Source of the DNA: a virus
Lineage: Duplodnaviria; Caudoviricetes
DNA: 56,599 bases
Strand: one strand, 5' to 3'
Virus record (IMG/VR): IMGVR_UViG_3300033233_000046
Location: 1-56,599 of that record
Both the position numbers and the translations under genes were made by a program. Shown in pieces: positions 1-47,882 of this stretch. The notes under the pieces were generated by a model. That model ran no database searches. It was given only the letters and a program-made list of their open reading frames with translations, and was not told the DNA's origin. Numbering within the stretch: the first letter of the stretch is position 1; every line of letters starts with the position of its first letter.

Positions 1-197
1 GGCATATAGACGCTGCAGATGTATGCATTGGCCTCCTTCATATCAGTGATGCCAGCGGCGGCAAGTTCCTTGACAAGCCTCTCCTGATGGGTGCGGAAGG
101 CCCGCTCAGAGCGTCCCCTGGCCTCGGTCGGGGGAATAGGCGGGAATCATCTCAATCCCTAACTGTCGCATGGCACACCCGAACTGTGTGAAATTCT
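1..197. repeat. Terminal direct repeat, copy 1 (matches 56388-56580)
   Basis: Direct comparison: identical except the extra TCGG and A192 versus G. Confidence 0.95.
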
Positions 198-623
198 CTT
201 TGTCCACTTTTCCACCAGCAGCCGGGGTATGCCAGTAGTGACTGCCACGATCCGTATACAAAGAGGCAAACACTCCGTATCCCTCAATGACCTTCCTGAC
301 CCCCTGAAAACTGCTTTGTGTACCTTCTTCCTCGACAAAAAACATCGAGTAGTGTGTGCCCGTGGCATCGTCCATCGTCACGATCAAATCCCATAACTTC
401 CCTATGACCCACTCATGCGGCGCCCGGCGATGCGATATCTGCCCCAACCGTTGATCTACAAGTCCCTCCATCCCCTCTTCCTCATAGCGAGCTAAATAGC
501 GGCGAAATGTTCTGTCACATACCCCAAGAAGCAATGCTGCCTCCTCCTGTGTCATCCGGCCCCGCTTCCACCCACCATATGCTTCCTCAAATCTCATCTT
601 CCGTACCTCCTGTAGTACCTCCG
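1..623 (-). pseudogene. ISNCY (IS1202-like) DDE transposase remnant, N-terminal HTH plus core; no start codon seen, internal deletion, frameshift
   Basis: Translation EVLQEVRKMRFEEAY...EAALLLGVCDRTFRRY and WDLIVTMDDAT...LYTDRGSHY...IPAYSP is typical of ISNCY transposases. RRAP is joined directly to HEWV (the segment with the first catalytic Asp is missing). A 4-bp TCGG duplication at 124-131 shifts the frame. Confidence 0.85.
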
Positions 624-41496: not shown

Positions 41497-42012
41497 ATGT
41501 ATGAACTTGTTTCATGGATTGAGTATATGGACAATATCTTGTTTCTAACGAGCAAGGAACTTACGACAAAGGAGGGCCGGGAACTGAAAAAATATCTCGG
41601 TGAGCAGTTCGAGAACGACATCAAGGGGCATGGGGCCATTAGAAAATACTACGGCCTTAAAAGCAATAAAGGAAACGATAGGGAATGCAACGATTTCTCT
41701 TCGACAAAAAAATTCCCGCCCGAAATTGTGAAGGCTATCAAGGAGGGATTATTCGAGGGCATTGGCATTGCTGTAAACATTCTTACCCCTAAAGCGTTAG
41801 CTGAGTACAAGAAGGTGGAAGGGCAGGCGTTAGCCGAGTACAAGAAGGTGCGAGGGCAGGCGTGGACTGAGTACAAAAAAGTGGAAGGGCAGACGTTAGC
41901 TGACTACAAGAAGGTGCAAGGGCAGGCGTTAGCTGAGTACGAGAAGGTGCAAGGGCAGGCGTTTTGGAGCCTCGTGAAAATAGCAGGGAATAGAAGAGAA
42001 GAATGGAAGTAA
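41497..42012 (+). CDS. Hypothetical protein with five 11-aa helical repeats
   Basis: ALAEYKKVEGQ-type repeats; strong RBS. Confidence 0.8.
   Translation: MYELVSWIEYMDNILFLTSKELTTKEGRELKKYLGEQFENDIKGHGAIRKYYGLKSNKGNDRECNDFSSTKKFPPEIVKAIKEGLFEGIGIAVNILTPKALAEYKKVEGQALAEYKKVRGQAWTEYKKVEGQTLADYKKVQGQALAEYEKVQGQAFWSLVKIAGNRREEWK
41794..41958 (+). repeat. 5 x 33-bp coding tandem repeat
   Basis: GCGTTAGCTGAGTACAAGAAGGTGxxAGGGCAG units. Confidence 0.95.
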
Positions 42013-42965: not shown

Positions 42966-43800
42966 ATGAAATATAGGGACTTTATACAGTCAAAACAGAT
43001 TGTTGATAACCCCTGCGGTATATCTGTGAATGGTGATCTTAACCCGATGCTCTTTGGATTCCAGCACGATATTGTCAGGTGGGCGGTTAAGCGTGGACGC
43101 GCTGCAATATGGGCGGATTGTGGCCTAGGCAAAACTCCAATGCAGTTAGAGTGGGCGCGTCATATCCCCGGTGATGTCCTTATCCTTGCCCCCCTTGCGG
43201 TATCTCAACAAACAATCAGAGAGGGGGACAAATTCGGTATTGAGGTAAATTACTCTCGCCATCAGGAACAAGTGCAGTCCGGCATAACTATCACCAATTA
43301 TGAAATGCTCCACAACTTTGATGCACAAGCAACTCTGTAAAGATTCTGCTATCTGCCGTTCTGGATTGCCTGATTATCTTATCACTATGAGAAAGCCAGG
43401 GGAGAACATGGAACCTATATCTCACCCCAATGGTCTTGAGGAGTTTCATGGAGACAACTCACCCACTAAAGGAGTGCTCTCACACGAACGGTGGAGGCGG
43501 TATGCCTCACCCGTATGGATGGATATTAATCAGACTGACACACTCCAATATTCATCGGCAAGAGAAGAAAAGGACGAAAGGCACATATGTCCGTTGCAAC
43601 TCGATACCATCCGGCGTGGGTTGCACCTTTGGACAAATCCCGGCGATCTTGTCCTCTCACCTTTCGCAGGTATCGGATCAGAAGGCTATGTTGCCTTAGA
43701 AATGGGGAGGCAATTCATCGGTATGGAGTTGAAGGAATCCTACTTCAAGCAGGCCGTAAACAATCTGAGGAACATTAAGAAACAGGGAATACTCATATGA
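42966..43800 (+). pseudogene. SNF2-like helicase / DNA methyltransferase locus with large internal deletion
   Basis: Helicase start (ADCGLGKT, LILAPLAV, ITNYE) stops before the DExx box and abuts, out of frame at ~43322, an MTase C-half (HICPLQLD, SPFAGIGSEG) with no catalytic xPPY/F motif. Confidence 0.8.
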
Positions 43801-43895
43801 CGCACGGCGACATCACAGCCTTGTATGAAATCAAGAGGGTAATCCGTCTGACGGTAACACGGCCTTTGAGCCTGTTATTCTTACCAACGAGGAGA

Positions 43896-43908
43896 TAACA
43901 CTTTGATT
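43896..43908 (-). promoter_or_regulatory. IHF binding site
   Basis: Minus strand AATCAAAGTGTTA matches WATCAANNNNTTR exactly. Confidence 0.6.
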
Positions 43909-43928
43909 TTTAAGGCATTACAGAAAGC

Positions 43929-43965
43929 TCCAGAGTCTGCCGTCCTGCCATTGGACGACTCCCCA
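43929..43965 (-). tRNA. 5' half of tRNA-Gln(CUG), probable attP core; not a full tRNA
   Basis: Minus strand TGGGGAG-TC-GTCC-AATGGCA-GGAC-G-GCAGA-CTCTGGA: acceptor 5' strand, D arm, anticodon loop with CTG; no T arm or 3' acceptor strand follows. Confidence 0.85.
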
Positions 43966-44000
43966 AAATTCAATGATTTTCGCTGCTTGAAGCAGTTCCC

Positions 44001-44030
44001 ATTATACCCCAAACTCTCAAAAACTGTCAA
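44001..44030 (-). promoter_or_regulatory. Consensus sigma70 promoter facing the tRNA half
   Basis: Minus strand TTGACA (44030-44025), 18 nt, TATAAT (44006-44001). Confidence 0.8.
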
Positions 44031-44035
44031 AATTC

Positions 44036-44065
44036 ACCAAAAACCTTACCAAAAACCTTACCAAA
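44036..44065. repeat. 12-bp tandem repeat, possible integrase arm-type sites
   Basis: ACCAAAAACCTT x2.5; CTTACCAA recurs at 43880-43887 across the tRNA half. Confidence 0.6.
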
Positions 44066-44253
44066 TTTTCGTGGGTGGTGATGACGGGGTCGGGTCGTAA
44101 CGGACAGCCGAGGATCAGGGACGAGGTGATGAAGATAAGGGAGTTGTGGCGTCGGCACGAGGGCGGAGAGATCAGCAGAGAGGAAATGGAGGAGGAACTG
44201 AGGAAGCTGAGACGTCCGCCGTTGTTTTCTAAATTTGAAGACGAGGAAAGGAG

Positions 44254-44535
44254 GTGATGAGAATGCATTACAAGGACGGGACCGTAGCGCAGATCGGTGA
44301 TTTAGCGAAGGGCACAACTTACAATCGCCAGGGCGAACGTGTTGGCACTATCGTCTCGATAACGCCGGGGTCAGATTTGTGCAATTGCAAGCTGGCGAAC
44401 ATTATCGAGGTTAAGCCCGAAGAGGCTTGTGAGCACGAACACTTATTTATGATTGTTCAACCCGATGGGAGCCGACGACTCTTCAAGGTGGACGTCGATT
44501 ACACGGAAGTGAAGGCGCTGGAAAAGGTCGCCTGA
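44254..44535 (+). CDS. Hypothetical protein
   Basis: AGGAGG RBS; operonic. Confidence 0.6.
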   Translation: MMRMHYKDGTVAQIGDLAKGTTYNRQGERVGTIVSITPGSDLCNCKLANIIEVKPEEACEHEHLFMIVQPDGSRRLFKVDVDYTEVKALEKVA

Positions 44536-44544
44536 GGAGGAAGA

Positions 44545-44793
44545 ATGCCGTTAACGATTTTGATAAACAATATGCCTTACGAGGTCCCGAAGCCCGCGAT
44601 GACCGGCGAGGAGATCAAAGAGCTTGCCGGTGGGCCGATGGATTACTGGCTGGTGCTTAGGAAAGGTTCCCCTGATCCCGTAGCCGGCGAAGATAATGTA
44701 CGCATTGAGGATGAAGAAGCCGTGGACATGCAGTCCGGAATGCAGTTCAGGATTATTAATGCCGCGACTTTCGGGGCATTGCAGGCAGCCTGA
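44545..44793 (+). CDS. Multi-ubiquitin-domain (beta-grasp Ubl) protein
   Basis: ILINNMPYEV...MTGEEIKELAG...YWL...IEDEEAVDMQSGMQF...ATFG pattern; GAGGAGG RBS. Confidence 0.72.
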   Translation: MPLTILINNMPYEVPKPAMTGEEIKELAGGPMDYWLVLRKGSPDPVAGEDNVRIEDEEAVDMQSGMQFRIINAATFGALQAA

Positions 44794-44938
44794 AGGCTGG
44801 GCCGGGGATGGCACGGGAGGATGGACAGGGAGAAAACTTCTCCCGGCGTAATAAGGTCCTTGTCTAACCCGGCCCTTTTCAAAAGGAGGGGCAGTGAAGG
44901 AGGTTCTGGAACTTGAACCATTTTAGGAGGAATAAATC

Positions 44939-45391
44939 ATGAAATCCTATAACTTCATCATCCTGGGCAATCCTCTTGCACAGGGGCGCCCTCGGTTCTT
45001 TGTCCGTCAGGGAAAGAGCGGTGGTAAGTTTGTCGGTGCCTACGATCCGGCGACATCGAAGAGTTGGAAGGAAACAATCAAGTGGCAGGTAATAGAACAG
45101 AAACCGGAAATAATCAGCGGTCCTGTCGCCATGACTCTCCATTTCATGCTTCCGAGACCGAAAGGGCATTTTAGAACAGGAAAAAACGATAAGGTATTGA
45201 AACCCTCAGCACCGAAATATCACATCGTTAAGCCCGATATTGATAATCTCGAAAAAGCCGTGAAAGATGCACTAAGGAGCATTTGTTATAGAGATGACTG
45301 TCAGATAATTTCTACAACCGTCACGAAAGAATACGGCAATCACACAACGGGCGTGAACATCGAACTCACGGAGGTTATTAGTGGCACTTAA
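44939..45391 (+). CDS. rusA: RusA-family Holliday junction resolvase
   Basis: GNPLAQGRPRF, KPDIDNLEKAVKDAL, YRDDCQI. Confidence 0.92.
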   Translation: MKSYNFIILGNPLAQGRPRFFVRQGKSGGKFVGAYDPATSKSWKETIKWQVIEQKPEIISGPVAMTLHFMLPRPKGHFRTGKNDKVLKPSAPKYHIVKPDIDNLEKAVKDALRSICYRDDCQIISTTVTKEYGNHTTGVNIELTEVISGT

Positions 45392-46064
45392 TCTTCAGTC
45401 CGGCAATATGTACGATTTCATCACGCACACATGGAATCCCATTAAGGGGAAATGCTCACATACCTGTTCTTATTGCTACATGCACCAAGAGAGATTGAAA
45501 GCACTCCGCCTTGACGAGAAGGACTTACAGACCGATCTCGGAGAAAGCAATGTTATTTTCGTCGGCTCCTCGACGGATATGTGGGCGAAAGATGTACCGG
45601 AGGAGTGGATTCGGGCGGTCATCGAGAGATGTGACCCCGCCGATAATAGATTTCTTTTTCAGTCTAAGAATCCCCGGCGGTTACTTTCTATGCCGAACAA
45701 TGCCAATTTTATCTTCGGCACAACGATCGAGACGAATAGAGATTATAAAATTTCTCAGGCTCCGATAGCATTGCTTAGGGCTGGAACAATGAAAGCCCTG
45801 CGGGAAAGCGGTTCAGAAGTCATGGTCACTATCGAACCCATCATGGACTTTGACCTCGTTGCATTTTCAATGCTTATAGAGGACATTAGACCCTCATGGG
45901 TGAACATCGGGGCCGATAGTAAGGGTCACAAGCTCCCTGAACCCTCATGGGAGAAAGTGCAGAATTTGATAAAGATTTTGAAGACGTTCACGGGAGTAAG
46001 AGAGAAGAAGAACATCGGAAGGCTGAAGCGGGGAGTTATTAACCATCAAACGGAGGGAGTATGA
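45381..46064 (+). CDS. DUF5131 (Gp37/Gp68, radical-SAM-like) protein
   Basis: TWNPIKGKCSHTCSYCY, IFVGSSTD, SKNP, GTTIETN, TIEPI. Confidence 0.85.
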   Translation: MALNLQSGNMYDFITHTWNPIKGKCSHTCSYCYMHQERLKALRLDEKDLQTDLGESNVIFVGSSTDMWAKDVPEEWIRAVIERCDPADNRFLFQSKNPRRLLSMPNNANFIFGTTIETNRDYKISQAPIALLRAGTMKALRESGSEVMVTIEPIMDFDLVAFSMLIEDIRPSWVNIGADSKGHKLPEPSWEKVQNLIKILKTFTGVREKKNIGRLKRGVINHQTEGV

Positions 46065-46387
46065 ATATTAGGCATGGAGATTTAGTACTTATCGGAATTG
46101 AGAAATTGCCAGAAGGACTCACGGCTACGGAAGCAACGGTAATTATGAAGGGTAGCGGAGGGAATGACCACACAGTTGTGAAGGGTGTGATCTATCCGAA
46201 TGCTGATAGGCAATTTATTGTCGGCTATTTGGAAGCGAAAAGAGGTTGCAGACTTCTTCATCCCGAACATGGGAAAAACAGAAAGATAAGTGGCGATTTG
46301 CGCATAGTTCGCATCCCCCAAGGATTCTATGAGTTGCGCAGGCAGTCAGAAGATACCCACAATGGCATGGTGAAGGTGGTGGACTGA
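46061..46387 (+). CDS. Conserved-type small 'R(Q/H)GD' His-motif protein
   Basis: IRHGDL, GGNDH, LLHPEH, GFYELRRQSE; upstream of the repeat protein. Confidence 0.7.
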   Translation: MNIRHGDLVLIGIEKLPEGLTATEATVIMKGSGGNDHTVVKGVIYPNADRQFIVGYLEAKRGCRLLHPEHGKNRKISGDLRIVRIPQGFYELRRQSEDTHNGMVKVVD

Positions 46388-46388
46388 G

Positions 46389-47882
46389 ATGAACAAGATT
46401 GAAAAGAAAGACACCAACAGGATTTATCAGGGCAATATCACTATCAGGAATGCCGAGGTGTGGCATGCGTTTATAAAAAAATACGATGCAATTACGGGCT
46501 ACATCGACATGCGGGGCTGCACAGGACTCACCTCTATCACATTCCCAGATAAGGTGATGGGCTCCATCGACATGCAGGGCTGCACAGGACTCACCTCTGT
46601 CACATTCCCGGATAAGGTGATGGGCTCCATCGACATGCAGGGCTGCACAGGACTCACCTCTATCACATTCCCAGATAAGGTGACGGGCTCCATCTACATG
46701 CATGGCTGCACAGGACTCACCTCTATCACATTCCCGGATAAGGTGATGGGCTCCATCGACATGCAGGGCTGCACAGGACTCACCTCTGTCACATTCCCAG
46801 ATAAGGTGACGGGCTCCATCGACATGCAGGGCTGCACAGGACTCACCTCTATCACATTCCCAGATAAGGTGACGGGCTCCATCTACATGCAGGGCTGCAC
46901 AGGACTCACCTCTATCACATTCCCGGATAAGGTGACGGACTACATCGAGATGCAGGGCTGCACAGGACTCACCTCTATCACATTCCCAGATAAGGTGACG
47001 GGCTCCATCTACATGCATGGCTGCACAGGACTCACCTCTATCACATTCCCAGATAAGGTGATGAGCTACATCGAGATGCAGGGCTGCACAGGACTCACCT
47101 CTGTCACATTCCCAGATAAGGTGATGGGCTACATCTACATGCAGGGCTGCACAGGACTCACCTCTATCACATTCCCAGATAAGGTGACGGGCTACATCGA
47201 GATGCAGGGCTGCACAGGACTCACCTCTGTCACATTCCCAGATAAGGTGATGGGCTACATCGACATGCGGGGCTGCACAGGACTCACCTCTATCACATTC
47301 CCGGATAAGGTGATGGGCTCCATCTACATGCAGGGCTGCACAGGACTCACCTCTATCACATTCCCAGATAAGGTGATGAGCTACATCTACATGCAGGGCT
47401 GCACAGGACTCACCTCTGTCACATTCCCAGATAAGGTGACGGGCTACATCTACATGGACGACCGGTGCTCAGAAGCTTTACTCTCCATGCAACACAAAAG
47501 GATCATATACCGCATTAGCGCAGTGCAGTTCAACAGGGATCTCTTCGATAAAGTACGTCACGATGACCTCTCTGCCCAGGAAGTCTTCTCGATCACCAAT
47601 ATGGAACAGCGCCGAATCGCCTATGAGCGCATGGACAAGATCAAGATGAAAGACATGCCTGGCTTTAAGACGCTCCACGAGGTTGCCGATGATGGGCGCG
47701 GTTATCCAATGAAGGTTGTGAGCTTCACAGTGGAGGGCTACAACGAACCATTCAAGTTCCTGAACTGTTTTTGTCCGTCAACGGGGAGGGAATACTTTTT
47801 GGAGACAAAACAGGATACGTGTGAGGTTGCGAAGGCGAAGAGTTTTGGTTTCGACAGACTGACGTTCGATGAGGAGTATTAA
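46389..47882 (+). CDS. Leucine-rich-repeat protein with DUF6745-like C-terminus
   Basis: 15 x 21-aa xxxIxMxGCTGLTS(I/V)TFPDKV; C-terminal NMEQRRIA and CPSTGREYFL. Confidence 0.85.
   Translation: MNKIEKKDTNRIYQGNITIRNAEVWHAFIKKYDAITGYIDMRGCTGLTSITFPDKVMGSIDMQGCTGLTSVTFPDKVMGSIDMQGCTGLTSITFPDKVTGSIYMHGCTGLTSITFPDKVMGSIDMQGCTGLTSVTFPDKVTGSIDMQGCTGLTSITFPDKVTGSIYMQGCTGLTSITFPDKVTDYIEMQGCTGLTSITFPDKVTGSIYMHGCTGLTSITFPDKVMSYIEMQGCTGLTSVTFPDKVMGYIYMQGCTGLTSITFPDKVTGYIEMQGCTGLTSVTFPDKVMGYIDMRGCTGLTSITFPDKVMGSIYMQGCTGLTSITFPDKVMSYIYMQGCTGLTSVTFPDKVTGYIYMDDRCSEALLSMQHKRIIYRISAVQFNRDLFDKVRHDDLSAQEVFSITNMEQRRIAYERMDKIKMKDMPGFKTLHEVADDGRGYPMKVVSFTVEGYNEPFKFLNCFCPSTGREYFLETKQDTCEVAKAKSFGFDRLTFDEEY
46494..47456 (+). 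repeat. 15.3 x 63-bp coding tandem array
   Basis: Units read directly; 10 of 63 positions vary. Confidence 0.97.

Follow-up and report, generated by a model that had tools for sequence, protein, structure and literature searches.

An orphan BubA-type ubiquitin-like gene in a tailed phage record, with a possible role in the host Bub pathway

Relation to described ubiquitin-like systems

The Bub pathways (formerly 6E/DUF6527) were biochemically characterised in 2024 (Ye et al., 10.1101/2024.11.21.623953; Gong et al., 10.1101/2024.11.21.623966). [quoted passage not shown] The same text describes stress- or phage-responsive regulators adjoining Bub operons, a tendency of these operons towards mobile elements, and no Bub operon that the authors found to protect E. 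coli; because of this last report, an antiphage role of Bub is unproven. Bil (bacterial ISG15-like), as given in that preprint (10.1101/2024.11.21.623953), acts against phages by tagging the central tail fibre.

Here we describe a bubA-like gene (44545..44793, stop codon included, + strand) in the window, which is the whole IMG/VR virus record IMGVR_UViG_3300033233_000046 of a sediment phage (Duplodnaviria; Caudoviricetes; 56,599 nucleotides; linear; CheckV completeness 72%). Its ORF, a PF14452 match, an AlphaFold2 model, and Foldseek characterise the product as an 82-aa single beta-grasp ubiquitin-like protein (Ubl) of the Multi_ubiq/BubA family. Like BubA of the Citrobacter Type I system (BubAB, BubCD, BubE), it belongs to this Pfam family, is predicted to share the fold, and has the conserved glycine followed by residues of the kind removed by JAB; moreover, its closest relatives adjoin a Prok-E2_E protein and a JAB-ThiF fusion protein that is a homologue of Citrobacter BubCD. 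It differs in that the phage record lacks BubB, BubCD, and BubE, and the Ubl is a single-domain, lysine-poor protein with no N-terminal extension, an altered loop, and three charge-removing changes (discussed below). In addition, bubA and bubB do not form one fusion in the related operons but are two ORFs, either apart or overlapping.

The phage Ubl is comparable to BilA in that the latter is also a bacterial Ubl conjugated via a set of E1, E2, and JAB enzymes. However, it is a Multi_ubiq protein, and its relatives occur with Prok-E2_E and oxyester enzymes of the cysteine-less kind. PADLOC (2023 library, which may or may not include Bil models) returned no match that would place it in Bil, and all relatives that could be judged lie in Bub-type loci.

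Viruses of eukaryotes offer a further comparison, as some encode a copy of the host tag without the conjugation enzymes; such ubiquitin genes, for example baculovirus v-ubi, have been proposed to interfere with host tagging. These cases differ from the present one in their eukaryotic hosts and true ubiquitin, and even for them the mechanism is not firmly established. Phages also carry counter-defences that copy components of a defence, including the pseudo-ToxI antitoxin RNA and Cas-derived anti-CRISPRs, and the resemblance lies in the use of a captured homologue of a defence component as a competitor. To our knowledge, there is no such case for a ubiquitin-like tag. A full-text literature search and the available text of the preprints of Ye, Gong, and Hor (10.1101/2023.09.04.556158) contained no mention of a Bub or Bil Ubl encoded by a phage, although supplementary operon tables may hold cases. 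The phage Ubl is thus a new member of a known family, and it is the phage-borne arrangement of an orphan, lysine-poor BubA that we did not find in print.

The gene product and the Bub loci of its relatives

The initial annotation had described an ORF ending ATFG-ALQAA, which is present at its full 82 residues, and had called the product a multi-ubiquitin-type protein, a call that the Pfam profile bears out: PF14452 (Multi_ubiq) matches residues 4–70 with an E-value of 1.7e-8 and 35 bits, relative to a curated cut-off of 24.5. The only match in a six-frame PF14452 search of the record is the bubA-like gene (33.9 bits), and none of 14 control genomes was matched in the same search; no family match was found in PHROGs or PADLOC (2023 library). 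A phmmer search of 1.84 billion representative proteins gave 45 matches at E≤1e-3, including seven at E≤1e-10 (best 8.6e-28), while a word-index search with the phage Ubl alone as the query returned only itself. A profile search retrieved 237 family proteins at E≤1e-10, one of them labelled by its source as belonging to a Thermodesulfobacteriota MAG.

The AlphaFold2 model is a beta-grasp fold (mean pLDDT 80.7). The Foldseek comparison that the annotation had proposed as a check of this fold places multi-ubiquitin/BubA chains (9d5a, 9d5b, 9cd2, 8u38, 9d59, and 9ea8_B) at all of the first nine PDB ranks, with TMq 0.63–0.73, rmsd 1.8–3.5 Å, prob 1.00, and E-values that are modest (3e-3 to 2e-2), as is usual for so short a domain. 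Among these nine, 9ea8_B is the BubA of the Citrobacter BubCD-BubA complex.

The ORF is intact and is preceded by a strong Shine-Dalgarno sequence, GAGGAGG (44534..44540, + strand), which shares bases with the TGA stop of the preceding ORF and lies 4 nt 5' of the ATG. The encoded C-terminus reads ...FRIINAATFG-ALQAA*, in which the conserved glycine is Gly77 (codon 44773..44775, + strand) and the remaining five residues, ALQAA (44776..44790, + strand), constitute a putative pro-peptide, the tails of the family ranging from 0 to 14 residues. All 20 rows of an alignment of the closest relatives have glycine in the Gly77 column, and in a second, 19-row alignment this column is conserved to at least 90%. 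Of the 45 phmmer matches, 33 homologues were retrieved, and nine of these end at the residue aligned with Gly77; others are short-tailed, and several continue into an additional domain, Prok-E2_E. From the family match, the modelled fold, and this E2 domain of the fused homologues, we classify the phage protein as a BubA-type Ubl, not a Bil-type one.

The Prok-E2_E domain was found at E≤0.01 in 7 of the 10 homologues scanned, 6 of them above the Pfam cut-off. In species-representative genomes, the genomic relative is a single locus, 68% identical to the phage Ubl, from a Thermodesulfovibrionia MAG, in which genes for an HTH protein, a COG2856-like protein, a BubA ending ATFGI, and an E2 follow one another in this order; a sample of 201 genomes from the class of this MAG includes 5 with Multi_ubiq. 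Relatives are also found at 25 metagenome loci, and the 22 closest (L003–L024) are 58–81% identical over the aligned stretch; overall, identity to the nearest relatives is 59–72%. An E2-sized ORF lies directly 3' of the Ubl, or is fused to it, at 22 of these 26 related loci, the remaining four ending or breaking at that point, and the next ORF is usually of JAB-E1 (BubCD) size. The fused relatives with Prok-E2_E and the BubB and BubCD neighbours identify the family as Bub, and the Bil framing of the initial annotation is therefore replaced here by BubA.

Two related operons were scanned with Pfam, and both contain Prok-E2_E and ThiF; DUF6527 was not seen in either. The E1 of locus L012 matches Citrobacter BubCD with an E-value of 6.7e-36, including the HSHP JAMM motif, and across nine BubCDs residues E27, H91, S92, H93, P94, D106, and Y377 are invariant. 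A conserved bubB start of the LPPQLE or LPPLL type is found at most about 30 nt past the glycine in 18 of the 20 junctions of related loci. In many cellular operons bubA overlaps bubB (L003, L005, L006, and L009, as well as family proteins from the profile search), and these operons are variants in which the BubAB pair of the published Type I fusion is unfused. Regulators adjoining the related operons include an HTH and COG2856-like pair, a LexA-like S24 protein, or an HTH-Panacea protein.

The gene following bubCD varies among these loci. Its product at L012 (3413–4960) has 515 aa and a TCAD9-like C-terminus, and that at L009 (4614–5405) has 263 aa and no Pfam match; neither is a recognisable DUF6527 protein (BubE). 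At L024 (3644–3835) a metagenomic bubA is broken after approximately residue 41 and continues into unrelated sequence, possibly through insertion or rearrangement, or because the assembly is chimeric.

The initial annotation had also considered the C-terminal glycine to be masked. Gly77 is indeed followed by five residues, but this is not a special feature of the phage copy. Of 121 family proteins, 96 could be parsed with a pattern describing the C-terminus, and in 60 of these 96 the glycine is followed by at least one residue (tails of 1 to 14 residues); the apparent mask is therefore an ordinary pro-peptide. The long cellular tails (ADDVLATAA, ..NELASSVRS, ..WDCLLN) are out-of-frame readings of the conserved bubB start, M..LPPQLE. 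We accordingly rejected the idea that tails ending in AA are selected degrons, as the long cellular tails are by-products of the bubA/bubB overlap. ALQAA itself might by eye be taken for a vestige of the bubB 5' end, but this is unsupported: its best local score against the bubB start is 18, compared with 14.6 ± 2.0 for shuffles, and 158 of 2000 shuffles attain this score, as do 395 of 2000 random phage 40-mers.

A resemblance of ALQAA to an SsrA-type degron had been suggested as well. The tmRNA tags of all five Multi_ubiq-bearing genomes in the class of the Thermodesulfovibrionia relative read AN[NT]ELALAA. Work in E. coli established that the leucine at position -3 of the SsrA tag is important. 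The phage tail has glutamine at -3 in place of the leucine of the tags and shares with them only the terminal AA; the likeness is weak, and in sequence ALQAA is not an SsrA-type C-terminus.

Orphan status within the phage record

The record encodes a portal, a major head protein, virion proteins, a primase/helicase, exonucleases, RusA, and a DUF5131 protein, nearly all on the + strand. The region is reproduced without differences in contigs from the run of a second study: eight X2 pieces are among the matches listed, with 0 differences, and one of them spans 44599–44861. Third-position composition sets the bubA-like gene apart from most of the record (GC3 0.627 versus 0.31–0.55 in 14 of the 16 other ORFs measured); however, an adjacent phage-type gene has a GC3 of 0.628, so composition is not diagnostic here.

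The initial annotation had noted that the window contains no E1, E2, or JAB gene, and profile and translated searches agree. Profiles for ThiF, Prok-JAB, Prok-E2_A, Prok-E2_E, DUF6527, and BubCD gave zero matches at E≤1 across the record, and a tblastn search of the window with the ORFs of related operons returned the Ubl and one unrelated methylase match, with no bubB/E2 or E1 remnant. With no match to E1, E2, JAB, or DUF6527, the bubA-like gene is therefore an orphan within the record. Because the record is linear and 72% complete, this absence of Bub enzymes applies to the record itself, in which BubB, BubD, and BubE do not accompany the gene as they would in a Bub operon.

The incompleteness of the linear record leaves room for the E2, E1, and peptidase genes to be encoded in the unsequenced ~28%, in which case the phage would carry a Bub system of its own, for example for superinfection exclusion, and the tendency of Bub operons towards mobile elements in the available preprint text (10.1101/2024.11.21.623953) would suit such a system. 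However, at all 22 of the 26 related loci that can be judged, the E2 is directly 3' of the Ubl or fused to it, while in the phage the next gene, after a gap of 145 nt, is rusA, and the record holds no remnant of bubB or bubCD. We therefore regard a phage-carried Bub system as very improbable.

rusA (44939..45391, + strand), which occupies the place of bubB relative to the cellular operons, encodes a Holliday-junction resolvase (PF05866, E=2e-25; phrog_140, E=7e-39). The 145-nt gap preceding it contains a possible terminator-like long stem (GGGCCGG...CCGGCCC) followed by UUUU (44800..44878, + strand). The evidence for this element is weak: its minimum free energy is -55.6 kcal/mol with z=-1.93, 7 of 200 shuffles fold as well, and a simple terminator scan returned none. 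The upstream neighbour (44254..44535, + strand) encodes a small phage-type protein of 93 aa that has no Pfam, PHROG, or PADLOC family and is not a Bub component; its nearest Atlas clusters are 89–100% viral, and it has one homologue, 42% identical.

The bubA-like gene thus lies within a run of small genes and adjoins rusA, and beta-grasp domains are versatile, so that the protein could be an adaptor acting outside conjugation, for example as a partner of the 93-aa protein or of replication or recombination proteins. Against this, the most strictly kept parts of the protein are the conjugation-specific C-terminal motif and the glycine, and no other family was matched, which makes an adaptor quite improbable.

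Several other genes of the record were noted. Upstream of the 93-aa gene, two overlapping ORFs of 124 and 166 aa (42966–43800, + strand) correspond to the N-terminal helicase-like and C-terminal N6/N4 DNA-methylase parts of one PHROG-16-type protein; approximately 460 profile positions are absent between them, and the helicase/methylase gene looks shortened or decayed. A 171-aa protein with tandem ALAEYKKV(E/R/Q)GQ repeats is encoded at 41497–42012, and a 163-aa transposase-like fragment is found at the left end of the record (106–597, minus strand). Downstream of rusA, the DUF5131 protein (45381–46064; phage Gp37/Gp68 type) has a weak radical-SAM likeness and matches the PADLOC candidate-defence models PDC-M41B (E=1e-9) and PDC-M30B (E=1.9e-8). 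It is followed by a 497-aa protein (46389–47882) with many tandem repeats of ~21 residues (MQGCTGLTSITFPDKVxGSIx) and tail-fibre-like PHROG matches; a long antisense ORF at 46215–47018 is probably an artefact of these repeats.

Derived features, predicted docking, and possible roles

In a 41-row tree the phage Ubl pairs with a metagenomic protein, P0003 (support 80/92), beside a clade of 14 operon-encoded BubAs (82/87), a placement that points to a cellular origin of the clade. P0003 consists of 73 aa, ends ATFGARAA, and is encoded on a 561-bp contig. The branches leading to the two proteins are long (stem 0.35, ends 0.36 and 0.54), compared with 0–0.24 within the operon clade. The phage Ubl diverges from every known cellular copy by ~30% of residues and ~31–33% of bases; given this residue divergence, the capture was not recent.

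Of the 48 columns that are invariant in the 14 operon BubAs, 37 are kept by the phage Ubl and 11 are changed. The derived changes L22E, K63Q, and R67Q are common to the phage Ubl and P0003 and remove charge, and this combination is found in only these two of the 96 parsed members. Both proteins have three lysines, compared with a family median of 8, and the Lys/Glu-rich N-terminal extension is absent, with 0–2 residues in place of the usual 6–12. The GGDD loop is changed to GEDN in the phage Ubl. The FRI(I/V)NxATFG end is kept in both proteins, a retention observed in these two sequences (n=2). The three shared changes suggest a persistent lineage, and the overall pattern fits an orphan lineage whose constraints have changed but for which the conjugation end remains important, while the long branch and the 11 changes fit relaxed constraint as well as they fit a new function.

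The phage Ubl was co-folded with an L012-type BubCD, a stand-in enzyme from another organism, with alignments supplied for both chains. The ipSAE values are 0.81, 0.78, and 0.81, compared with 0.00 for the best of three controls; 58 of 80 solved complexes attain the mark applied to these scores, as do 2 of 110 mismatched pairs, but close relatives of a true partner pass co-fold tests by likeness, so the predicted score is not proof of binding by this particular copy. At least 86% of contacts agree among the runs, and partner pLDDT is at least 83. Residues 69–79 of the Ubl contact residues of the BubCD JAB domain including 27, 91, 93, and 106. The predicted pose would be a substrate-like position for an uncut pro-form, unlike the E1 site occupied in the solved BubCD-BubA complex, and it supports, as a model, docking of the phage Ubl in the JAB site of BubCD. 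Conservation is not enriched at this interface: 8 of 12 predicted-interface columns are kept versus 29 of 36 elsewhere (p=0.43).

Our preferred reading, which we hold tentatively, is that a BubA-type pro-Ubl was captured by the phage from a bacterial Bub operon of the JAB-E1-fusion kind and has been kept without its enzymes, and that it competes in the Bub pathway of the host. Under this reading, the Ubl would be made during infection from a block of replication and recombination genes and would bind the host BubCD at its JAB peptidase domain in the way that host pro-BubA does. If cut after Gly77, it could then be taken up by the E1 and subsequently the E2, where it may occupy the Bub enzymes or form conjugates that lack the function of host BubA conjugates, and so serve as a decoy or competitor. 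The proposal of competition with the host tag is based on the lack of the Lys/Glu-rich N-terminal extension and most of the lysines. We infer expression, cleavage, charging, competition, a benefit to the phage, and the presence of Bub in its host. In a more specific and more doubtful form, the lysine-poor, extension-less pro-BubA would enter BubCD and BubB as a pseudo-substrate, or as a dud in chains or conjugates, and disarm Bub; this would be the first phage counter-defence based on a Ubl tag.

A tag-only phage copy, in which the conjugation end is kept and the extension and most lysines are lost, is the pattern expected of a viral competitor. If the competitor reading is correct, Bub would be tied to conflict with phages and the protein would be a natural inhibitor for dissecting the pathway; its existence would moreover give a first independent indication of antiphage action by Bub, something that those who characterised these pathways were unable to show. 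The theme of viral copies of a host tag would then extend from viruses of eukaryotes to phages.

The same retained glycine, tail, and C-terminal motif, together with the predicted JAB docking, could equally belong to a hijacked tag, which the BubCD and BubB of the host would attach to host or phage proteins for the benefit of the phage, much as published co-expression of BubA, BubB, and BubCD tags many E. coli proteins (10.1101/2024.11.21.623953, available text). Nothing computational separates such a tag from a decoy. However, no candidate target or specificity factor is encoded nearby, the neighbours being the 93-aa phage protein and RusA, and the lost extension and lysines look more like a loss than a gain of function; a hijacked tag is therefore unlikely.

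Alternatively, the gene may be a neutral passenger, a piece of a Bub operon acquired through illegitimate recombination that has left an intact but functionless ORF in slow decay. Its separation from every partner enzyme in the record, the long branch with its changes at 11 of the 48 positions invariant in the clade, and the decayed appearance of the nearby helicase/methylase gene are all consistent with this, as is the lack of any other viral copy in IMG/VR scans or an INPHARED tblastn search. On the other hand, the ORF is intact, has a strong Shine-Dalgarno sequence, and is confidently foldable; the capture was not recent, as judged from the ~30% residue divergence, yet the frame and the C-terminal motif survive; and the three derived changes held in common with P0003 suggest a persistent lineage. 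We consider a passenger somewhat unlikely on balance; were it only that, the gene would be a minor curiosity of gene transfer, in contrast to the competitor favoured above.

The searches for further viral copies were as follows. Three protein-pattern scans of IMG/VR, in which only close relatives are detectable and from which the phage's own record was possibly excluded, found no viral relatives of the Ubl, and a DNA pattern for G..FR[IV][IV]N..TFG, likewise sensitive only to close relatives, gave 0 matches in viral data. tblastn of INPHARED with the phage Ubl and a three-domain family member as queries returned no copy, nor was a copy of the phage Ubl found among PLSDB plasmids. For rusA and the upstream 93-aa gene, IMG/VR contained no close relatives with which synteny could be compared.

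With regard to the host, the capsid protein was compared with 401 genomes from the phylum of the genomic relative; matches at 34% identity were found in two genomes only and are uninformative. Upstream of the 93-aa gene, ~40 nt at 43929–43968 (minus strand), together with 44001–44030, are common to many unrelated contigs from sediment (three runs), and this is a break point of the X1 assembly. The minus strand of 43929–43968 resembles the 5' half of a tRNA, and other contigs run on from it into a T-arm-like GGTTCGAATCC. ARAGORN called no whole tRNA for this piece, and Rfam gave no match within 43600–45000. A perfect sigma-70 consensus (TTGACA-18-TATAAT, 12/12) lies ~35 nt upstream of the tRNA-like piece on the same strand. 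Judged by its sequence, the piece at 43929–43968 is a candidate attP core or tRNA remnant and could aid in assigning the host.
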